Of a DNA stretch of 64,000 bases, positions 13,659 to 33,962 are shown in pieces. Both the position numbers and the translations under genes were made by a program. This DNA comes from Bacilli bacterium (lineage in GTDB: Bacteria; Bacillota_I; Bacilli_A; ML615J-28; CAG-313), in contig JBGVCU010000034.1 of the NCBI GenBank assembly GCA_045119035.1, positions 2,626 to 66,625 of the forward strand, in the 5' to 3' direction. Numbering within the stretch: the first letter of the stretch is position 1; each line of letters begins with the position of its first letter. The notes beneath the pieces were generated by a model. It searched no databases and was not told the DNA's origin. It was given only the letters and a program-made list of their open reading frames with translations.

Positions 13659-14402
13659 TTATTCTTCATCAAATTCTTCTTCTAAACCTTCAACGCTATG
13701 ATAGATATCTTGAACATCTTCAATGTCATCTAATAATTCCATTAAACGATGGAAATGTCTAATATCATCTTCATCTTCAAGTTTAGTATAAGTTTCTGGA
13801 AGTAATGTAGTTTTATCAACTAAGAATTCTACATCTGGCATAGCATCAACTAATGCTTGTCTGATTTTTGAATATTCAGTATTAGGTGCATAAACACTTG
13901 TAATTCCATCTTCTAATTCAACATCAGTAACATCACAATCTGCCATGATTAATGTATCTAAAGTTTCTTCATCATTTAATCCTTTGAAAGAGAAAATTGC
14001 TGTATTTGTAAACATATGTGCAACACTTCCTGGAGCACCTAGTTTAAATCCAACTTTAGTAACAGCAACACGTACTGCTGTATAAGTTCTATTAACATTG
14101 TCTGTTAAACAGTCAATAATAAACATTGAGTTATTAGGACCAAAAGCTTCATATCTAATTGGTGAATAGTTTTCTTGAGATCCACCTTTTGCTTTTTCGA
14201 TAGCTCTTTTAATAACGTCAGCTGTAACTTGTTCTTTTTTAGCTTTTTCAATTTCTTTTTTTAATGGTTGGTTAAGGTCTGGGTCAGGAACACCAGCTTT
14301 TGCTGCCATATAAATGATTTTACTCCATTTATTGTTTAATTTAGATTTTGCTGCGGCTGTTTTTGCCATAGAGGCTGCTCTTACTTCATGAGCTCTTCCC
14401 AT
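13659..14402 (-). CDS. yebC: YebC/PmpR family protein
   Basis: MGRAH start after AAGGAG, PDPDLN, YEAFGP, LTDNVNRT, DIEDVQDIYH. Confidence 0.95.
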   Translation of the reverse strand: MGRAHEVRAASMAKTAAAKSKLNNKWSKIIYMAAKAGVPDPDLNQPLKKEIEKAKKEQVTADVIKRAIEKAKGGSQENYSPIRYEAFGPNNSMFIIDCLTDNVNRTYTAVRVAVTKVGFKLGAPGSVAHMFTNTAIFSFKGLNDEETLDTLIMADCDVTDVELEDGITSVYAPNTEYSKIRQALVDAMPDVEFLVDKTTLLPETYTKLEDEDDIRHFHRLMELLDDIEDVQDIYHSVEGLEEEFDEE

Positions 14403-14479
14403 ATCTGTCACTCCTTTGTTATTTAATAAATCTTTAGTATTATAACATTTTTTTGTATTTTTTTAAAGTAATATACTTT

Positions 14480-20540: not shown

Positions 20541-21089
20541 CTAACCTATATTTTTAAAATATTTTATTTTATTTGTCAAAATATATAATAAAGGGATATA
20601 AACAAAGGTTGTTACAATTGAAAGTATTAATCTAATAATAATGTTAATAAATGTTAAATTTACAGGATAGTTATATATCTTACCATCAACAATTAAAGCT
20701 ATACTGTTTACTAAAGAAGCAAACAATGCTCCTGCAATTACACATAAACTAACACTTAGTAGTTTTTTATTATATTTGAATAAATACATAATAATACTTG
20801 GAATCAATCCCCAACACATTGTCGATAACATCCAAAGTGGTGTGGTTAAAGTAATACCATATTCACTGATAATAATTTGCGTAATAAATGCTGTAACAAA
20901 ACTTGTTAATGTACCAACCTTAATATTAAATAAAATTCCCGCAATCATTAGAGGAATACCATAAAAAGTAATTCGATATGTATTAACTCCACCAAATAAA
21001 GAAATAGGGATACTAACTGATTCTAAAATAACTGCAAGTGAACTAAGTATACCTACAATGCAAATTTCATACACTAATTTTCTTTTCAT
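20541..21089 (-). CDS. folT: Folate-family ECF transporter S component
   Basis: Hydrophobic S-component pattern (RITF..IPLMIAGILF), start MKRK after AAGGAGG, THF riboswitch upstream. Confidence 0.85.
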   Translation of the reverse strand: MKRKLVYEICIVGILSSLAVILESVSIPISLFGGVNTYRITFYGIPLMIAGILFNIKVGTLTSFVTAFITQIIISEYGITLTTPLWMLSTMCWGLIPSIIMYLFKYNKKLLSVSLCVIAGALFASLVNSIALIVDGKIYNYPVNLTFINIIIRLILSIVTTFVYIPLLYILTNKIKYFKNIG

Positions 21090-21129
21090 AAAAAAAGACC
21101 TCCTTAAAAATAAAGAGAATCCGCAATAT

Positions 21130-21219
21130 ACAGCGGATACATTAATAAACCGCCACATAATGTGTTCGTCTATTTCATCATCCTTTGAAATAGCACTTAA
21201 CGCTTATTAATTACTCTGT
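21130..21219 (-). ncRNA. THF riboswitch followed by a terminator-type expression platform
   Basis: ACAGAGUA...GCGUUAAGUG...GACGAA...GCGG...AUCCGCUGU consensus; downstream ATCCGC/GCGGAT hairpin plus U-rich tract (about 21105-21138). Confidence 0.88.
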
Positions 21220-21278
21220 AGAAATATTATATATTTTTTCAATAAATTAGTCAATTCAAATACAAGAAAGGGATACTA

Positions 21279-24425: not shown

Positions 24426-25430
24426 TTAATTGACGTTTGTTTGATAATCATATATATATTCTATACCTTGATATGTAATTCGAATTTTATACTCAACAAC
24501 CTTTGATTTTAAAATATCATCTTTAATTATGCCATCTTCTGTTATATAATTTTTTATATTTTCATCACATATATATTCTACTTCTACATCATTAAATAAT
24601 TTATATGCTTCTAAATAATACGAAGTAAGTTTTCTAAATTCTGGAAAATAATAACTATTTATTAAAACTTGTGGACAATTTTTTCCAGAGAAATCGTAAT
24701 GTTTTCTTAAAGACTCAATTGGTAAATTATACTTGTATAATAATTTTGCTGCAAGTTTTGCTGTTGTTACCATTGTTTCTAAGTAGTCTATACCACTATA
24801 TACACAAGTTTCAATTCCAATTCCATTTAGATTTCCACCACCATAATTTGTTTTATTATATTTACTACTATACCATTTTGTACCAGTTGGTCTTAAACCA
24901 TCTCCAGCATGATACGCTACTTCATTATCCGGAATATGTTGATAAATATATTCTTCATCTACTGTATAATGCCAAGAAAGTCCAGGGTTTGAATTTTGAA
25001 TATAATTACTATGATTAAGACCATTTGCTGTGGGTTTATTATTACCAGTATCATGTATTACAATCCATTCTACTTTATCACGTGTAATACCAGGTCTTGT
25101 ACTTTTATATTTCTTATCTACTAGTTTTTCATCAATAATAAGTTCATCTATGTTAATAAAATATAGTAGTGAATAACTTTTATTAATATTATTAAATGTA
25201 TTAAAGTGTATTTGTTTTACATTTTCTTGGTATATTTTATTTAAAAATTCTTCTATTAAAATAATTTTTTCATCTTTTTCAATTATTATTTCTTCATCTT
25301 TTATTTCTTCTTTATCTATTATAATTTCTTCTTGTTCTTCTTCTATAGGGGGGATAATATTAGATGTATTACTACATGATGATAAAACTATCATAAATAC
25401 TAATATAATTAATATAAATAACTTCTTCAT
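24426..25430 (-). CDS. Lipoprotein N-acetylmuramoyl-L-alanine amidase (Amidase_2)
   Basis: Lipobox LSSC; IVIHDT, SWHYTVD, AYHAGDG, IGIE, KHYDFSGKNCP. Confidence 0.9.
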   Translation of the reverse strand: MKKLFILIILVFMIVLSSCSNTSNIIPPIEEEQEEIIIDKEEIKDEEIIIEKDEKIILIEEFLNKIYQENVKQIHFNTFNNINKSYSLLYFINIDELIIDEKLVDKKYKSTRPGITRDKVEWIVIHDTGNNKPTANGLNHSNYIQNSNPGLSWHYTVDEEYIYQHIPDNEVAYHAGDGLRPTGTKWYSSKYNKTNYGGGNLNGIGIETCVYSGIDYLETMVTTAKLAAKLLYKYNLPIESLRKHYDFSGKNCPQVLINSYYFPEFRKLTSYYLEAYKLFNDVEVEYICDENIKNYITEDGIIKDDILKSKVVEYKIRITYQGIEYIYDYQTNVN

Positions 25431-25552
25431 CTATACCTCCTATGTTGCCCACTATATTTTAACATAATTAACTTTTTATTGACAATAGGTTTTAAGAAAT
25501 TACATAATATTACCAAATTAAAAAAGCAGCCATTAGACTGCTTAATTTTTTA

Positions 25553-28132
25553 TTATTCACTTCTTAAAGCAATTACTGGATCTTGTTTAGATGCCATTCT
25601 AGATGGAATTAAACCAGAGATAATTGTTAACATAAAGCTAATTATTACAACAATTGTAGCATGTAATGGATTTAAGAATGCAATATTGTGTGTACCCATT
25701 AGATTGAATAAAACAACATTGATTGGGATACATAATAATACAGTAACAAGCACACCGAATAATCCAGATGCAAGTCCGATTACAAATGTTTCAGCGTTAA
25801 ATACACGTGAAATATCTTTCTTTCTAGCACCAACTGCACGAAGAACACCGATTTCTTTAGTTCTTTCAATTACAGAAATATATGTAATAATTCCAATCAT
25901 AATTGAAGATACAATTAGTGAAATAGAAGTAAAGGCAATTAACACTGCTGAAATACCATTAATAATATCACCAACTGCAGAAATCATGATAGCCATAATA
26001 TCTGTATATTGAACTTCTGCTTTTCTTCCAGCTTTTGCTGCAGCATCTTTTTGTGCTTTTGTTGCATGTTCAATACCTAATGCAATTATTTCTTCTTTAG
26101 AAAGTTCATCACTGGATGGATTATTTTCTAAATATTCTAAACCAACTTCATACATATATTCATTATATGCTTCATCATAATATTCTTTATTTTTTTGATT
26201 TAAAAATTCTTTTACATCATCTTTTGTATTAAAATCTGTAGGATATAAATTTATTCCATTTGGAACTTTAATACCACCAATTTGTTTCATTACAGAATTA
26301 TATGTAACATTTTTTGAATTTGCAAATAAATTTCCTGTTAACATATTTATTTCAGGATTTGCTTTTTGATCATTTACAATATTACTTTCTGCATTTAACG
26401 CAAACATTCTATCAGTAAGTTCTGGTAGATATCCCACAATTGACATTTGCCCCATTTGACCACTTGTTGAGTTTTCATTCAAACGAATAACACCACAAAT
26501 TTCAATTTCTGTTGTCGAATTATTGAATGTCTCAATGTCAACATAAGTCATTGAATTTTGTTTAAACTCAGTTGATGTATAGAAATTACCTTCTTTTTTA
26601 TAAAGTTCATTATTTGATAATACTTTATATTTTGTACCAACAATTTGACTAAAATCAATTGATTTTCTTCCAAGCTCATCAGTTTGCACAATTGAAGGAT
26701 CTAGTCCTAAACAATTAATCATTATATCAGCTACTTGGTTATATTTATCTACAACTAAAACTACATCATTATATTCAGTTGGATAATCACCGTAAATTAA
26801 ATCGTATTGTGCTTTTAAGAATTCATCATTACCTAAAAGTTGAGCAAAAGGTTTAAAACCACTAGATAAAGAACCTGCCATACTCATCATTGATTCAAAC
26901 ATATCATCTAGTTTACTAATGTTTAGACCTGCTTTAACACTTGTTCCATCATTACTTAAATATGCACTTTCCTTGTAAATAGATAATTGCATATCATATG
27001 TATAAGATACATCAACTAACCATTCATCAGGAATTTGTTCAATAACATCAGTAATATATTCTGGAGTAATGTCATTTACAGCATATACATCTGTCATTGC
27101 TGCAAGAATCTCATTAATAAATACTTTTTCAACAGTTGGATATTTTTCAATACCTTCAGGGATATGATCCATAATAGATTCTATATCCATTTTAGTCGAA
27201 GTAATCATTAAAGGATAACTTGATAATGTATCAACTTGTAATTTATCAATATATGTTTGGAAACCATTTGATAAAGCCATTACTAAAGTAATACCGATAA
27301 TACCAATACTACCTGCAAATGTTGTTAAAATTGTTCTAGTTTTCTTTGTTAATAAGTTGTTAATACTTAAAGCAAAAGCAGTAAGTAGTTTCATAGCTGT
27401 ATATTTTGTCTTCTTCGGAGTTTCTACTTCTTCTTCTACAACAACATCTTCAGTATGATAAGGATTTGTATCACCTGTAATTAATCCATCAAATAAATTA
27501 ATAATTCTTGTTGAATATGTTTTTGCAAGTTCAGGGTTATGAGTAACCATGATAACAAGAGTTTCTTTTGATAACTCTTTTAAAATGTCCATTACTTGGA
27601 TACTAGTTTCAGAGTCAAGCGCACCAGTTGGTTCATCTGCTAAAATAATATCAGGATTATTAACAATTGCTCTTGCGATAGCAACACGTTGCATTTGTCC
27701 ACCTGATAATTGGTTTGGACGTTTATATATTTGATCTTCTAGACCAACTTTAATTAAAGCATCTATTGCTTTTTGTCTTCTTTCTTTTTTTGATACACCA
27801 GATAATGTTAAAGAAATTTCAACATTTTGTAAAATTGTTTGGTGAGGAATTAAATTATAACTTTGGAACACAAAACCGATTGAGTGGTTTCTATATGTAT
27901 CCCAATCACGATCTTTATATTTAATAGTAGAAACATTATTGATTACTAAATCTCCGCTTGTGTATTTGTCAAGACCACCAATAATATTTAATAATGTAGT
28001 TTTACCACATCCAGAAGGACCTAAAATAGATACAAATTCATTTTTTCTGAATTCTAAAGAAACGCCTTTTAAAGCATGAACTTGTAACTGTCCAGCATCA
28101 TAAACTTTAGTTATATTCTTAAGTTTTAACAT
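25553..28132 (-). CDS. MacB-like fused ABC ATPase/permease
   Basis: [21 protein letters not shown], FtsX-type C-terminal [14 protein letters not shown]. Confidence 0.95.
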
Positions 28133-28239
28133 AGTTACCTCCTATACATAATATACAGCTTTTAAATTATATTTTATTATAAACTATTTTATGATTTTTT
28201 TCTATTATTTAGCAATATGCATACATAATTTTTTTATAT

Positions 28240-28270
28240 AAAAAACACTGTATTATTATACAGTGTCTTT
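28240..28270 (-). terminator. Intrinsic terminator
   Basis: ACACTGTAT-tatt-ATACAGTGT hairpin with U-tract on minus. Confidence 0.7.
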
Positions 28271-29409
28271 TAAACTATTTTTACTTTTAATTTATTATCT
28301 TGAATATACTTTAGAATACTTTTTAATCGAGACTTGCTTTCAACATTTAAATCAATATCTTCATTATCTAAAGCAGTAAGTAAGAAACGATATTTTGTTC
28401 TAATAGATATATTGCAACTTGTAAGCTTTTTATCAACAATTACTTTTAACGCTTTTTGAAGTGCTTTGTAACTTGCATCAAGTTGTTCTATTTGTTCAGA
28501 GTTATATGTTCCTCCAGTTAAAGAAATATTAAGTTGTTCGATATAATAACTCCACATATATTCTTTAGTTTGTGGGTTTACTTTCGGATTTATATCAATT
28601 AATAAATCTTTATTATTAGTTAATATATCTGTTACTGAAATTAATTTTTGAATTACTTTCTTTAATTTTCTAAATTCATTTAAATCAAATTGATTAATTT
28701 CTTTTGTTAGATTACTTCTTGTATCTAAATCAATAATAGTATATTCACTTTTATTAATATAAGATTTTTCTAAATTATTTTTTAGATATGTTTTATCTTG
28801 TAAATCAATAAATGACCCTTTTAAAAAATCATCTAATGCTTTTGAAAAAGCATGAATATACCCTTCGTAACGAAAATCTACTAAATAATTTTCAACACCA
28901 TAACTAAATAAACTTAATAAATGATTTGTAGTAATATTATGAATTTCATTTTCAATTATTAATTGTTTAATAATTCTAATTGAATTTTTATATAATGGAT
29001 AATTATTACTAATATATTCAACTAAATTTACTTCTTCTAAATATTTATTAATATATATTTTTAAAGTAACATTATCATCAAAGCTTATTTCAAAATAATC
29101 TAATCTTTTAACATCACAATCAAAATTTAATAATAAAATATTATGTAAATAGTTTTCTAAGATAACTACTTCATTCTTATTTGGTTTATTTAATGAAAAT
29201 AATAAATTTACTTCTATTGTGTTTTCACAAGCCAATATTAAACCATTTTTAAGTGAACCTAAATACTTATATCCATTATAGTTAATATTACTATATTTAT
29301 TTTCTTTTAGAATTTCATCTAGTAAATTTATTTTTTCTAAGAAAAGAGCTTTTTTTGATGAAGGCAATTCTGTATCAAAGACTATTTTACGATATTCTTT
29401 TTCTGTCAT
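28270..29409 (-). CDS. Degenerate CD-NTase/OAS-like nucleotidyltransferase fold fused to an RNase H-like domain
   Basis: LGSLKNGLILACENTIEV (cf. GSxxxGTxLxxxxDID), SIRIIK, IIDLDTRSNLT (cf. IIDPxxxxNNV); C-terminus follows an RNase HI pattern. Confidence 0.6.
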   Translation of the reverse strand: MTEKEYRKIVFDTELPSSKKALFLEKINLLDEILKENKYSNINYNGYKYLGSLKNGLILACENTIEVNLLFSLNKPNKNEVVILENYLHNILLLNFDCDVKRLDYFEISFDDNVTLKIYINKYLEEVNLVEYISNNYPLYKNSIRIIKQLIIENEIHNITTNHLLSLFSYGVENYLVDFRYEGYIHAFSKALDDFLKGSFIDLQDKTYLKNNLEKSYINKSEYTIIDLDTRSNLTKEINQFDLNEFRKLKKVIQKLISVTDILTNNKDLLIDINPKVNPQTKEYMWSYYIEQLNISLTGGTYNSEQIEQLDASYKALQKALKVIVDKKLTSCNISIRTKYRFLLTALDNEDIDLNVESKSRLKSILKYIQDNKLKVKIV

Positions 29410-29427
29410 ATAAATTCCTTTCAAAAT

Positions 29428-29451
29428 AAAGGACGAAATACTTCGTCCTTT
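29428..29451 (-). terminator. Intrinsic terminator
   Basis: AAAGGACGAA-atac-TTCGTCCTTT hairpin. Confidence 0.7.
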
Positions 29452-29458
29452 AATATTT

Positions 29459-31477
29459 TTAGTGTACTAAATAATCGTGTTTCTTTAAAGCTTTATGTGA
29501 TAATACAGTGAAAATTACACTAAATACTAAAGCAATACCGATTCCGATTAAAATAGAATATAATGGAATTTGGAAATATCCAAATGTCATGAAATCATAA
29601 TTAGATTTAAATATTGCGTTACAAATTAAAACAACAATAAATCCAAATACAAGTGATAAAATATAACCAAAGAATCCAATAATTAAATTATGTAAAGCAG
29701 AAACTCTCATAATTTGACCACAAGAAAGTCCAAAGCTTCTTGATAATGTTAATTCTTTACGATAGTTAGCAATTAATAAATAACTTAAAATTACACTACC
29801 AGCGATTGTTAAGATAACCATTGCTACAATTGCAACATTTACAGGAGTTGGCATAGAAGTAATTTTGTTAAATAATACAGAATAATCACTATCTAAAGAT
29901 GTAACAACAATTAAGTTTTCTCTTTCATTGCGGATAACACTTGCATTACGTTCGATAAATCTTGAATTATACATATAATCATCAGTTAAATTAATTAAAC
30001 CAATTGAGAAGAATAATTCTTGATCAAAATCAGGATTGTGATGACCAAAATCATAACTATCAGTAATAATTAAGTTTGATTTATATTCATTATCTTTAAA
30101 GATACCTGCAATTGGTAAAACAGTAAGATTTGCTTTATTATAAGATAATAATAATTTTTTACCTACTAATTCTTCAATTGAATTAAATACAGCTTCTGTA
30201 CTATCACCATCTTCGAAGAAATAAGTATCAAATGCATCTCTAAATTTCTTATTATGACTTGCTTTATTATTACGATGATTATTAATATAGTCTAAATATT
30301 TGCTAGCTTCAGTTTCACTAATGTAAATACCTTCAGCTTCATCTTCCCAAGAAGAACCAGGAAGAAGTTCATATGTAGTATCTTTTTCAGATTCTAAGAT
30401 TCTAAATAATGCAGCTGGATATGTATAACCAGTACCAGTAACATGGGCTTTAAATTCACCACCTGAAACGGCTAAGTTATAACCCCATTGAATAGTAAGT
30501 TCAGGGAATTCAAAATCAATTTGAGCTCTTGCTAATGCATCAATTACATCTGATGTATTAACATTAGCGTTTTGAATATTTCTTTTTAATGTTACTTGAT
30601 TAACTTCATTTTCATGTAAAGCTCTAGCGAAGTTTTCATGATCATTATTCATTGTAGTATTAGTAATTAAGAATAAAGAAATTGTAATACCAAGTAATAC
30701 CATTAAATAAATTGAACCACGAAGTAATGATGAAGAAATTTTGAATAAATTTTTAAATGAAAATTTATTTTCTTTAACATATAATCCAATATGTGGTTTA
30801 TCGTTTGATTCGTTAATAACTGTTACAGTAATTTGTTCATGTTGAACATGGTTAATTGTATGGGCTTCAAATGCAACAATTTGGTCTGCAATTTCTTTTG
30901 CAGTAGCTTGTAAAGCATTACCAACAAATACTAAATATTCTTTAGAAATATCTTTTAATAATTTCCAAATGTTTGCTACTTCTTCAGCGTTAAGTCTAGC
31001 AATTGGGTTATTTGCAATGATTACTTTTGGATCTTTTACTAATGCTCTAGCAATATCTAGGCAGTGTAGTTGATATTCAGATAATTCTGATACACTTGAA
31101 TTTCTATATTTTAATAGTCCAACTCTTTCTAATACTTCATGAATATATTTTTCATCAACTTTATCTTGGAAAGTTGCACATGAAGATAAAACATTTGCAA
31201 ATACTGTTTCATTTTCAATATATTGAGTGTTAGCAAATACTAAACCAATGTTATATAATCTATAATCATCAACTAATGCTGGATGATTTAATACGAAATC
31301 ATCAACAGTAATTTCTAATCCTTCAACATATTCAACACCTGCTAAATATTTAACAAGTGTTTTTGCACTTGATTCTTTTTTACCACAAATAAAAACTAAT
31401 CCAGTGTTTCCAAATGTTAAATTTATTCCATTAAAAACAGCTTTTGCTTTAGAACCGTTATATTTAATATTTAACAT
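29459..31477 (-). CDS. MacB-like ABC ATPase/permease with degenerate nucleotide-binding motifs
   Basis: ABC fold landmarks (TGLVFI.G, IGLVF, IARALVKDPKVII) but Walker A GKKESSAKT, signature LSEYQ, Walker B IIANNP; FtsX-like C-terminus. Confidence 0.8.
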   Translation of the reverse strand: MLNIKYNGSKAKAVFNGINLTFGNTGLVFICGKKESSAKTLVKYLAGVEYVEGLEITVDDFVLNHPALVDDYRLYNIGLVFANTQYIENETVFANVLSSCATFQDKVDEKYIHEVLERVGLLKYRNSSVSELSEYQLHCLDIARALVKDPKVIIANNPIARLNAEEVANIWKLLKDISKEYLVFVGNALQATAKEIADQIVAFEAHTINHVQHEQITVTVINESNDKPHIGLYVKENKFSFKNLFKISSSLLRGSIYLMVLLGITISLFLITNTTMNNDHENFARALHENEVNQVTLKRNIQNANVNTSDVIDALARAQIDFEFPELTIQWGYNLAVSGGEFKAHVTGTGYTYPAALFRILESEKDTTYELLPGSSWEDEAEGIYISETEASKYLDYINNHRNNKASHNKKFRDAFDTYFFEDGDSTEAVFNSIEELVGKKLLLSYNKANLTVLPIAGIFKDNEYKSNLIITDSYDFGHHNPDFDQELFFSIGLINLTDDYMYNSRFIERNASVIRNERENLIVVTSLDSDYSVLFNKITSMPTPVNVAIVAMVILTIAGSVILSYLLIANYRKELTLSRSFGLSCGQIMRVSALHNLIIGFFGYILSLVFGFIVVLICNAIFKSNYDFMTFGYFQIPLYSILIGIGIALVFSVIFTVLSHKALKKHDYLVH

Positions 31478-31646: not shown

Positions 31647-32513
31647 TTATTTATTAAATTGTTTATGAAGTAATAATACCATTTCTCTTAATGTTTTACA
31701 AGCAACAGCAGTTGATGCCCCACTTGCATCATAATGAGGTGAAAGTTCTACAATATCAGCACCAACAACATTATTTAGTTTTGTAAAGTCTAAAATTGCA
31801 TCAAGTAATTCTTTGTATGTGATACCACCTGGTTCAGGTGTTCCTGTTCCAGGGAAGTATGCAGGGTCAAGTACATCTAAGTCAATCGTAATATATACTG
31901 GATGATCTTTAATTTCTTCAATCACTTCTTTTAAACCATTTAGATTAAATTTTTGTAAATGAGTATGAGTTTTTGCCCATTCGAATTCTTCTTTTGATCC
32001 ACTTCTAATACCGAATTGATAAATACGATTATCACCAAGTAAGTCATAACATTTTCTTAATACTGTAGCATGAGATAATTCCATACCAAAGAAATCTTCT
32101 CTTAAATCTGTATGTGCATCGAAATGAATTACTCTTAAATCAGGGTATTTTTTAGCCATCGCTCTAAATACACCAAGTGATACTAAATGTTCTCCCCCAA
32201 TCATCATTGGTCTTTTATTATCATTTATAATTTCTTGTGTTGTTTCTTCAATAATATCTAAACATCTTTTTACATCACCAATTGGTAAATCTAAGTCACC
32301 TGTATCACAAGTATTATAATCTTTTAAATCCATATCAAGATATGGGCTATACCATTCAACACCAAATGAATCAGTTCTAATAGCAGGACCAGCAAAACGT
32401 GTTCCTGGTCTAAAGCTACATGTTGTATCCATCGGACATGAAAATATTACAACATTTGCTTCATTATATTCACTTTCACAACTTTGAAAAGGGTTTGATA
32501 CTTTTTTTAACAT
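31647..32513 (-). CDS. speB: Agmatinase
   Basis: GGEHLVS, HFDAHTD, IDLDVLDP..PGTGTPEPGG. Confidence 0.95.
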   Translation of the reverse strand: MLKKVSNPFQSCESEYNEANVVIFSCPMDTTCSFRPGTRFAGPAIRTDSFGVEWYSPYLDMDLKDYNTCDTGDLDLPIGDVKRCLDIIEETTQEIINDNKRPMMIGGEHLVSLGVFRAMAKKYPDLRVIHFDAHTDLREDFFGMELSHATVLRKCYDLLGDNRIYQFGIRSGSKEEFEWAKTHTHLQKFNLNGLKEVIEEIKDHPVYITIDLDVLDPAYFPGTGTPEPGGITYKELLDAILDFTKLNNVVGADIVELSPHYDASGASTAVACKTLREMVLLLHKQFNK

Positions 32514-32522
32514 ATATTCCTC

Positions 32523-33962
32523 CTAAATTTTAGCTACCCTAATCATTCCATCAGGGCTATCTTTGTATAACACAATACCATCATTGATATACTCTAACAT
32601 AATATCAATAATGTTTTGATCGATTTGTTCACCAGCAACAATTAAAGGAATTCCTGGTGGATAAATCATAATTGATTCAGCAGATATATATCCTAGTGAA
32701 TCTTCAATTTTTACATCAAGTTTTTTAGAATTATATGCATCACGAGGTTTTATCATTTGTTTAGGATAATTTGTAAATATTTGGGTATTTTTCAATTCTT
32801 GTTTATTAATTGATTTTTCCATATCAATTAAAGCATTAGCTAAGTTATTAAGATCTTCTTTTGTAGTTGATGCACTTAATATAAATAAAACAACAAACTT
32901 TTCACCAAGCTCTGCTTGAATATTATATTTTTCTTTTAATAATTTGTAAGCTTTAAAACCGCTTATGCCAAGTTTTTTAAAACTAACAATTAATTTTGTA
33001 AAATCATATTGATAAGTAGATCTATCTAAAAAATATTTTTCATCTAAAATTTCGATAACATTTAAATCTTTTGTTTTTTCTTTAAAATATTTAAGATTGT
33101 CAAATAATTCTTTGATTTTTCTTTCCGCATTAAAATATAAATCTTTTCTAGCAACATCAATACTAGCAATAAGTAAACTTGAAGGAGATGTTGTTTGAAG
33201 CATATTTATAATTGTTCTAATTTCTGTATCTAACTCTAGTTTATTTGTCAGTAATATAGAACTTTGAGTTAATGAAAGACCTGTTTTATGCATTGAAGAA
33301 GCAACTATATCAGCATTTTTAGAAATTGCTGAATCTGGTAATAAATTAGAAAATGCATAATGTGTACCATGTGCTTCATCTACTAACACATATATATTTT
33401 TTTGGTGGGCATAATCAATAATATCTTCTAAATCTAATACTTCTCCAAAATATGTTGGATGTATTAAAAGAATAGCTTTTGCAAAGGGGTTATTATCTAT
33501 TGCTTGTTTTACAACTTGAGCACTTAAGTTTTTAGCAAAACCATATTCATAATCATACTCAGGTTCAATAAATATAGGGTTTGCTCCGCTTAGTATTATT
33601 GCATTAATTACTGATTTGTGAGCATTTCTAGGAAGTAATATATATTCGTTTTCTTTAACAACACTCATAATCATTACTTGAATTGCAGATGTACATCCGT
33701 TTACTAGAAAGTATGCTTTCTTTGCACCAAAGGCTTCAGCACAAAGTTCTTCAGCTTCTTTTATAACTGTTTTTGGTTTATTTAAATTATCTAAACCTAT
33801 AGGAGCATTAGCATCTAGTTTATATAAAATCTCACCACCATTTATAGTTAAGTCATTTTGAATTTCTCCAAGTTTATGACCAGGAACATCAAATGATGTT
33901 GTATTTGATTTTGAATATTTTAATAGTTCGGTGTAAAAAGGGGTTTTTTCTTGTCTATTCAT
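32523..33962 (-). CDS. speA: Arginine (Lys/Orn/Arg family) PLP decarboxylase
   Basis: FDVPGHK, PRNAHKS, DEAHG, SMHKT, TTSPS, YPPGIP; operon with agmatinase. Confidence 0.88.
   Translation of the reverse strand: MNRQEKTPFYTELLKYSKSNTTSFDVPGHKLGEIQNDLTINGGEILYKLDANAPIGLDNLNKPKTVIKEAEELCAEAFGAKKAYFLVNGCTSAIQVMIMSVVKENEYILLPRNAHKSVINAIILSGANPIFIEPEYDYEYGFAKNLSAQVVKQAIDNNPFAKAILLIHPTYFGEVLDLEDIIDYAHQKNIYVLVDEAHGTHYAFSNLLPDSAISKNADIVASSMHKTGLSLTQSSILLTNKLELDTEIRTIINMLQTTSPSSLLIASIDVARKDLYFNAERKIKELFDNLKYFKEKTKDLNVIEILDEKYFLDRSTYQYDFTKLIVSFKKLGISGFKAYKLLKEKYNIQAELGEKFVVLFILSASTTKEDLNNLANALIDMEKSINKQELKNTQIFTNYPKQMIKPRDAYNSKKLDVKIEDSLGYISAESIMIYPPGIPLIVAGEQIDQNIIDIMLEYINDGIVLYKDSPDGMIRVAKI

Follow-up and report, generated by a model that had tools for sequence, protein, structure and literature searches.

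The gene and its locus

The window considered here is a stretch of 64,000 nucleotides from a Bacilli bacterium (GTDB lineage Bacteria; Bacillota_I; Bacilli_A; ML615J-28; CAG-313), corresponding to positions 2,626 to 66,625 of the forward strand of contig JBGVCU010000034.1 (assembly GCA_045119035.1). It belongs to a genome (G000) of 1.72 Mb in 69 contigs that is 96.7% complete. Between two genes for ABC transporter proteins, on the reverse strand, the window holds a complete gene for a protein here called P0001, which is in all likelihood a catalytically dead homologue of the CD-NTases (nucleotidyltransferases of the cGAS/DncV-like type) that act in cyclic oligonucleotide-based antiphage signalling systems (CBASS), carrying a tail with an RNase H fold. 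The features of the locus are collected in Table 1.

Table 1. Features of the P0001 gene, its product and its flanks, in window coordinates
Feature	Position	Strand	Basis
Complete coding sequence, 379 aa and TAA stop; protein P0001	28270..29409	(-)	Open reading frame call and translation
Ribosome-binding site GAAAGGAA, 6 nt 5' of the ATG	29415..29422	(-)	Read from sequence
Hairpin between the upstream ABC gene and the P0001 gene, followed by AUUUUG	29427..29452	(-)	-14.0 kcal/mol, z -3.9 vs shuffles
Terminator-like hairpin that extends over the stop codon, with a U run after it	28239..28272	(-)	-16.4 kcal/mol, z -6.6 vs shuffles
Residues 1-255: bilobed nucleotidyltransferase fold of the CD-NTase/OAS/DZF kind, taken to be catalytically dead	28645..29409	(-)	AlphaFold2 (AF2), Foldseek, profiles
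G51-S52 loop, retained	29254..29259	(-)	Alignments
T64-I65-E66, occupying the [DE]-h-[DE] metal-binding dyad position	29212..29220	(-)	Alignments
Helix 77-94, predicted two-fold interface, N86 facing N86 at the axis	29128..29181	(-)	Homodimer model
K117, occupying the third catalytic Asp position; the CdnC LDVD strand aligns here	29059..29061	(-)	Alignments
Residues 256-379: minimal RNase H-like fold (b-b-b-a-b-a-b), no DEDD set	28273..28644	(-)	AF2, Foldseek, conservation
Upstream fused ABC ATPase and FtsX permease (MacB-like), 701 aa	29459..31564	(-)	Pfam
Downstream fused ABC ATPase and FtsX (MacB-like), 859 aa	25553..28132	(-)	Pfam

The open reading frame (ORF) at this place (28270..29424, reverse strand) opens at a TTG codon, while the ATG at 29409 yields the 379 aa of P0001. 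Position 29409 is taken as the true start because the N-terminus MTEKE[FY]RK is invariant across 17 close relatives (alignment A1). An earlier reading of the DNA letters, referred to below as the original prediction, had described the gene as bracketed by terminators, and hairpins are indeed found at both ends, both of them folding far better than shuffled sequences. A consensus terminator scan listed the upstream hairpin alone, and on the + strand. This hairpin ends 4 nt before the ribosome-binding site and ~17 nt before the ATG, which leaves no space for a separate promoter; expression probably relies on read-through or on a promoter within the upstream gene. The GC content ranges from 0.19 to 0.32 per 2-kb step across the window and is 0.22 around the P0001 gene.

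A nucleotidyltransferase fold in the N-terminal domain

Searched on its own, P0001 reaches a best Pfam E of 0.048 (TetR_C_8), has no match in NCBIfam or PADLOC, and finds nothing better than E 0.38 among PDB sequences (phmmer). Its relatives comprise 26 full-length clusters of 346-400 aa among 5.8 billion proteins, none of which has a Pfam domain or a name, and 47 clusters at E<=0.001 among 1.84 billion representatives; NCBI records label the family proteins as hypothetical only.

The affiliation of the first 255 residues comes from profiles and predicted structures. The profile searches used alignment A2, made of 39 diverse family members. Against PDB, the top match of the A2 profile was NF45/ILF2, a DZF pseudo-nucleotidyltransferase (E 0.0044), next to the near-identical nucleotidyltransferase chains 6p8u, 6p82 and 6p8j (E ~0.0045), which we take to be CdnD from Pseudomonas aeruginosa. 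CdnC from Escherichia coli MS115-1 (6p80) was matched with a whole-sequence E of 0.015, weak by itself, in an alignment that is collinear over both lobes and pairs the CdnC segments GSLAKGTALRSLNDIDV, the LDVD strand, FAQVVRLAK, YPEALQAF and IIDPVNPVNNVA with motifs of P0001.

Individual members of A2 match models of the same superfamily. Pfam SMODS is found in 12 of the 39 (best E 3.6e-7), DZF_N, weakly, in 5 (best E 7.2e-5) and Mab-21_C in 4 (best E 0.003). Among the PADLOC models for CBASS oligonucleotide cyclases, PDLC00823 matches most members (13 of 39; best E 2.9e-11), and PDLC00808 gives the strongest match of all (E 1.7e-15, 3 members). Precomputed PF18144 (SMODS) annotation is present on 16 of 57 further relatives, and ESM Atlas features lead to SMODS, CBASS, OAS and DZF clusters. 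DZF_C does not appear among the matches listed for the 39 members (25 of 28 families), and P0001 itself matches no DZF model.

The full-length AF2 model, computed from 17 input sequences, has a predicted local distance difference test (pLDDT) of 86.6 and a predicted template modelling score (pTM) of 0.64, and contains a Pol-beta-type nucleotidyltransferase (NTase) core and a helical C-lobe in the cGAS/OAS arrangement. Foldseek against PDB returned 223 matches at E<=0.001, headed by CdnC (6u7b_A; E 7.8e-7, template modelling (TM) score 0.50/0.59) and followed by OAS1 (4rwn), OASL (4xq7), CdnB (7ljo), NF90-NF45, CdnE (6e0m), CCA-adding enzymes and terminal uridylyltransferases. The original prediction had recognized a CdnC-like CD-NTase in the first ~255 aa by comparison with motifs of CdnC-type cyclases, and it is borne out on each point: all the peptide strings that it quoted are present in the translation and in the order given, the CdnC strings that it set against them match the real alignment of the A2 profile with 6p80, CdnC is the top Foldseek match, and the SMODS and CBASS-cyclase models are reached through the relatives.

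Loss of the catalytic triad

The metal-binding acids of P0001 are altered in the way the original prediction had described, with T64, E66 and K117 at the three positions. A census of the family comprised 89 distinct sequences, and 87 of them can be read at each of the three positions. The full acidic set occurs in 4 of the 87 (P0049, P0061, which is identical to L062, P0065 and L061), the first and second acids (the dyad) alone in 28, the second alone in 30, including P0001, and the third alone in 17; one sequence has just the first, another the first and third, and six have none. In the clade of P0001 the three positions vary between sequences (T/E/K, L/E/R, E/E/I, N/K/E, I/H/Y and others) and the rest is conserved. 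Since they differ from sequence to sequence, these metal-binding positions are unconstrained in that clade.

Had orthologues retained the catalytic residues, P0001 could have been a decaying allele, a case that the original prediction had named as fatal to its own proposal. Instead, a whole clade of 24 sequences around P0001, with ~42-80% identity to it, lacks the triad and yet consists of full-length ORFs. Conservation across the entire family concerns other residues: N86 and N90 in the N-lobe; N142, K148, Y181, Y184 and D193-D194 in the C-lobe; and N233.

An RNase H fold in the C-terminal domain

The C-terminal domain, modelled separately with 21 input sequences, reached a pLDDT of 89.2 and a pTM of 0.81. 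Foldseek gave 12 matches at E<=0.001, every one of them to a type-1 RNase H domain, with TM scores of ~0.5-0.62 and 2qkk_W as the best (E 1.7e-4, TM 0.62). They include human RNase H1, RNase HI from Sulfolobus tokodaii and Halobacterium, the reverse transcriptases (RTs) of foamy virus and HIV, E. coli RNase HI and LC11, with the entries 3aly, 4e19 and 1wsi among them. Foldseek and the secondary structure are consistent with the five-stranded RNase H sheet (order 3-2-1-4-5) and its flanking helices.

At the sequence level the resemblance disappears. In a set of 21 C-terminal domains, translated from the window and the loci of relatives, RNase_H (PF00075) matches none and RVT_3 (PF13456) one (E 0.026). 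The profile of the domain found nothing but chance-level rows among PDB sequences (eL27, E 0.48; UPF0339, E 0.73), and its hhalign comparison with 10 RNase H domains from Bacilli gave a probability of 0.5%. The RNase HI likeness that the original prediction had read from the tail therefore divides: the fold and the absence of the catalytic set stand, and the sequence similarity does not.

The DEDD residues were mapped by alignment and secondary structure rather than by structural superposition. On this basis, the catalytic position of strand 1 is D in 10 of the 21 sequences, N in 9, S in 1 and H in 1, and no conserved acid occurs among them on helix 1 or at or after strand 4. P0001 ends right after strand 5, and the helix bearing the fourth acid of RNase HI has no counterpart. 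What the 21 domains keep invariant is P275, W286, A312, K315, K319, E357 and R361, with Y288, G299-G300, Y302 and N358 nearly so. The domain is mildly basic (pI 8.9; family median 8.5), and its conserved basic surface is a putative binding surface.

This domain has been seen in the present architecture alone: a word-limited search for longer proteins gave 57 matches, whose lengths all fall within 231-404 aa and 16 of which have SMODS. The fusion is old, because the triad-bearing homologues L061 and L062 already carry the C-terminal domain. It has been undone in genus g11 (G030-G039; L028-L030), where the protein exists in a short form of 282-291 aa made of the N-terminal domain alone. In at least one genome (G034) remnants of the C-terminal domain with 10 stops lie downstream of it, and G035 has a shorter extension interrupted by 4 stops. 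As the g11 protein ends after the N-terminal domain, the latter has a use of its own.

As a separate observation, no type-1 RNase H (PF00075, PF13456) was found in the whole of genome G000, which holds two genes of the RNase HII family (C36:15805-16419 and C54:2862-3389).

A predicted homodimer

Structure prediction points to a symmetric homodimer of P0001, with a score of 0.62 compared with 0.00 for the best of three controls. Among proteins of known structure, 20 of the 30 whose solved form is a pair of one chain attain the same mark, as does 1 of the 23 whose solved form is a single chain. Three runs gave 100% contact agreement, with a partner pLDDT of at least 86. The helix listed in Table 1 forms the core of the predicted interface, to which residues 37-41 and 100 also contribute. 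Its residues N86 and N90 are kept as the majority residues by 97% and 87%, respectively, of the 39 diverse members, and neither is a CdnC residue.

Distribution, inheritance and selection

In its own family (f1), made up of uncultured low-GC gut Bacilli, the gene is present in 40 of 49 genomes, in 27 of the 31 of high quality and in 10 of 13 genera. The sister family (f2) has it in 5 of 57 genomes, one of these being a weak partial match. A sample of the class yielded 22 of 399 genomes with the gene, and its part outside the order of P0001 yielded 2 of 350, L061 and L062, both with the triad. Within the own family the gene is single-copy; in four g9 genomes the A1 search gave two collinear pieces of one ORF, and the A2 search one match.

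On the protein tree, 12 changes suffice to account for the 13 genus labels, which is the minimum, and the genera are monophyletic, which indicates vertical inheritance. The clade of P0001 comprises 24 rows with a support of 100 and a stem of 0.71 changes per column. Strain differences from the window within the coding sequence are synonymous in 6 of 8 cases (X5) and 4 of 7 (X13), where random expectation is 19%, these being small counts from low-depth contigs. Near-identical DNA occurs in gut metagenomes, bovine and mouse among them. No link to phages was seen: none of the 39 members matches PHROGs, and tblastn against 50,697 phage records gave no match. The genome of P0001 contains no other SMODS gene.

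The triad-bearing relatives are rare and belong to families other than that of P0001. L061 (829-9605) lies after HsdS, HsdR (type I restriction-modification, R-M) and a YgjP-like peptidase, and before an rve/Mu transposase, and L062 (5312-7243) stands directly after a gene for an SprT-like metallopeptidase. The domestication that the original prediction had suggested fits this distribution, in which the gene is near-universal, single-copy and vertical in one family, and its triad-bearing relatives sit elsewhere in R-M and transposase contexts. It can be added that a metallopeptidase gene accompanies the triad-bearing homologue in two unrelated genomes (YgjP-like in L061, SprT-like in L062).

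Gene neighbourhoods

A gene for a HisJ-type PHP phosphoesterase lies directly upstream in 21 of the 28 loci of relatives, and YebC lies downstream in 20, one contig ending before this point. Wherever the flank of the PHP gene was read, TypA stands in front of it, and the order TypA, PHP, P0001 homologue, YebC spans genera g2, g3, g8, g11 and g13. Measured from stop to stop, the frames of the PHP gene and the homologue often overlap. The remaining seven loci have varied neighbours: NAGPA, SNase, Endonuclease I, metallophosphoesterase, leucine-rich repeat (LRR) proteins and PnuC. The PHP gene itself (L009, L010, L013, L021, L029 and others) matches TIGR01856 with 96 bits, the cut-off being 90.2.

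A HisJ-type PHP partner was also sought in the genome of P0001 and rejected: tblastn found none, and PF02811 led to PolC, DnaE and one unrelated PHP ORF of 245 aa (blastp). Because this genome has no HisJ-type PHP homologue, the PHP link cannot apply to the P0001 copy. Its YebC is encoded at 13659-14411, ~14 kb away. In the clade of P0001, the homologue is preceded by a fused ABC-FtsX gene in the window itself, in L002 (34% identity) and in the metagenome locus L051 (~53-55% identity), the three readable loci of the clade on which this adjacency rests.

The eight neighbours of the P0001 gene that were scanned with Pfam are two ABC_tran and FtsX fusions, one on each flank, Amidase_2, DegV, Arginase, OKR_DC_1, CBM26 and an FAD oxidoreductase. 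Among these eight, no member of the Cap effector, HORMA or TRIP13 families was found, in agreement with the original prediction.

Several features of the surroundings can be recorded in their own right. The Walker A and B strings of the 859-aa ABC protein are canonical (ABC_tran E 8.9e-34). The 701-aa protein has GKKESSAKT and IIANNP in their places and a weak ABC_tran score (E 1.9e-8), and judging from these strings it may be the degenerate ATPase partner in a heterodimer. Directly upstream of the latter gene lies a polyamine pair (31647-33962, reverse strand), with a gene for an Orn/Lys/Arg decarboxylase followed by an arginase-family (agmatinase-like) gene whose counterpart in the metagenome relative L051 is 89% identical. 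A tetrahydrofolate (THF) riboswitch (21129-21220, reverse strand; 69.4 bits, gathering score 36) overlaps the predicted 5' end of a 205-aa ORF at 20541-21158. Three ORFs antisense to the amidase and ABC genes (24671-25018, 25479-26012 and 27549-27734, all on the + strand) have low-complexity translations and are most likely not genes.

Interpretation and alternative explanations

According to these data, the reading that we favour, with modest confidence, is that P0001 is a domesticated, non-catalytic and dimeric binder of a ligand or of nucleic acid. It would be the non-catalytic descendant of a CBASS-type CD-NTase, permanently fused to a small RNase H-fold domain, in which nucleotide polymerisation would have been lost. 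P0001 may then work as a dimeric binding or scaffold protein, a mechanism that we put forward tentatively. The former NTP cleft and the mildly basic surface of the C-terminal domain, which bears P275, W286, Y288, G299-G300, Y302, K315, K319, E357 and R361, would bind a ligand, either a nucleotide or a nucleic acid. We would expect a cellular role and not one in abortive infection, as for the non-catalytic DZF domains of NF45/NF90 in animals; OASL and MAB21L1 are presumably further non-catalytic descendants of the fold. Of the roles of binder, decoy or adaptor that P0001 might have, that of decoy is the least favoured because the distribution is housekeeping-like. P0001 descends from, or is sister to, the CBASS CD-NTases, and the direction from active to inactive rests on parsimony and context.

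A number of results weigh against this reading. P0001 still has the G-S loop, E66 and E61 (the last conserved in its clade), which may allow some residual or unorthodox catalysis. The assignment of the RNase H fold consists of Foldseek matches with TM ~0.6 and has no sequence support, and it is uncertain how the two domains are placed relative to each other (pTM 0.64; pLDDT of the linker 63-76). The dimer is a matter of model confidence and not a measurement, and its interface does not exceed the remainder of the N-terminal domain in conservation (0.40 compared with 0.42; 5945 of 10000 random sets equal or higher). The gene was not found in genera g5, g6 and g7 (genomes 92-97% complete, one 71%), and is therefore dispensable. 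Housekeeping synteny within one family can be inherited without a functional link, and it is broken in the genus of P0001. Finally, transcript data over 27900-29800, which consist of contigs from two metatranscriptome runs and from one run labelled RNA that is probably DNA, place the metatranscriptome contigs exclusively at 27900-28147, the 5' end of the downstream ABC gene, and partly derive from other organisms; inside the P0001 gene there is a trace depth below 1 in two bins (X19).

Another view is that the protein still serves in phage defence, as sensor, decoy or adaptor of a CBASS-like pathway with distant partners, or as a one-gene system whose RNase H-like domain detects nucleic acid of phages. 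The homology to CBASS cyclases and the type I R-M system and transposase beside triad-bearing relatives speak in its favour, and decoy or adaptor also figured in the original prediction. Defence genes, however, are usually patchy and mobile, whereas this one is single-copy in 40 of the 49 family genomes, with monophyletic genera and a conserved TypA/PHP/YebC order. Moreover, no effector is adjacent, no second SMODS gene exists in the genome, and the catalytic triad required for signalling is gone, all of which makes a defence role improbable. Slightly less probable again is an enzyme with a re-wired active site (using, for example, E61/E66, or acting in trans in the dimer), which would transfer or hydrolyse nucleotides, perhaps together with the neighbouring phosphoesterases of other genera. 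The retained G-S loop and conserved C-lobe residues, the acidic dyad kept in 28 of 87 relatives, and the PHP, SNase, Endonuclease I and metallophosphoesterase genes next to the homologues of other genera speak for such an enzyme. Nevertheless, the two-metal catalysis of Pol-beta-type NTases requires all three carboxylates, and in P0001 all three canonical metal ligands are changed and are variable within its clade, in a genome in which neither tblastn nor blastp finds a HisJ-type PHP homologue.

In the clade of P0001 the protein might also be a cytoplasmic accessory of the flanking MacB-like ABC transporter genes. This idea draws on the order of the 701-aa ABC gene and then the homologue, common to the window, L002 (of the same genus) and L051, on the degenerate look of the ATPase motifs of the 701-aa protein, and on the hairpin that leaves the P0001 gene no promoter space. 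We consider it unlikely, since the three loci are all kin, a terminator-like hairpin stands between the genes, the downstream gene in L002 encodes a PnuC-type transporter and not the 859-aa ABC protein, and the neighbours in all other genera are unrelated. As for a decaying or functionless remnant, the loss of catalytic residues, the genera in which the gene was not found and the loss of the C-terminal domain in g11 would suit it. It is already largely refuted, and very improbable, given the intact full-length ORFs throughout a clade ~42-80% identical to P0001, the residues that are invariant across sequences ~30% identical to it, the excess of synonymous strain differences, and two confident structure models.

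Beyond the favoured reading of a domesticated non-catalytic binder, a more specific history can be sketched, which is speculative and which we hold to be rather doubtful as a whole. An intact-triad, one-gene immune module consisting of a CD-NTase and an RNase H-fold sensor would exist beside R-M genes in a few Bacilli, and would have been captured in one family of uncultured gut Bacilli. There the third Asp would have been lost first and the dyad afterwards, and the module would have become, step by step, a housekeeping factor that is homodimeric and non-catalytic, binds nucleic acid and is co-transcribed in most genera with the translation-associated TypA and YebC. If this were true, the DZF, MAB21 and OASL pseudo-enzymes of animals would have a counterpart in bacteria, and the family would be one of the rare documented examples in which bacteria themselves domesticated an antiviral signalling enzyme. 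In any case, one small family holds the whole series, from triad-bearing genes in R-M and transposase contexts through dyad-only forms to fully degenerate core genes. This makes it a tractable system to learn what the cGAS/OAS fold does once nucleotide synthesis stops, and what is sensed by the RNase H-fold module of those forms that have kept their activity.

Comparison with known systems

CD-NTases are known in bacteria as enzymes of defence islands, and animals are known to have non-catalytic proteins that descend from this fold (DZF, OASL, MAB21). Full-text word searches, which cannot prove absence from print, found no published description of an architecture that joins a CD-NTase to an RNase H fold.

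With the CBASS CD-NTases (SMODS, PF18144; such as CdnC from E. coli MS115-1 and CdnD from P. aeruginosa), P0001 shares the bilobed fold, collinear motifs and, through its relatives, matches to SMODS and PADLOC models. Unlike them, it lacks the triad and an operon with HORMA/TRIP13 or a Cap effector, it is encoded by a core, vertically inherited gene and not by an island gene, it bears an additional C-terminal RNase H-fold domain, and it matches no CD-NTase sequence model itself. As the triad and the effector operon, two defining features, are both absent, P0001 is not filed as a CD-NTase. Its C-terminal domain resembles type-1 RNase H (E. coli RNase HI, human RNase H1, retroviral RT) in its apparent strand order and in its core helices, but differs in the absence of the DEDD set, of the terminal helix and of any profile similarity.

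The DZF domains of NF45/ILF2 and NF90/ILF3 have the fold and the absence of catalytic residues in common with P0001. DZF domains work as dimers, a homodimer is predicted for P0001, and solved DZF entries hold ATP, UTP or CTP (titles of 4at8, 4at9 and 4atb). DZF proteins are, however, eukaryotic and heterodimeric, and they bind RNA through separate double-stranded RNA-binding domains (dsRBDs), not through an RNase H-fold domain. The predicted interface of P0001 uses an N-lobe helix. OAS1 and OASL, which occupy ranks 2-4 in the Foldseek search with the P0001 model (4rwn, 4xq7), are animal proteins that are activated by or bind double-stranded RNA. OASL is non-catalytic and has a C-terminal add-on, which is ubiquitin-like and not RNase H-like. 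By analogy with these proteins, P0001 may work in the manner of the DZF/OASL-type pseudo-enzymes, without being a member of those eukaryotic families.

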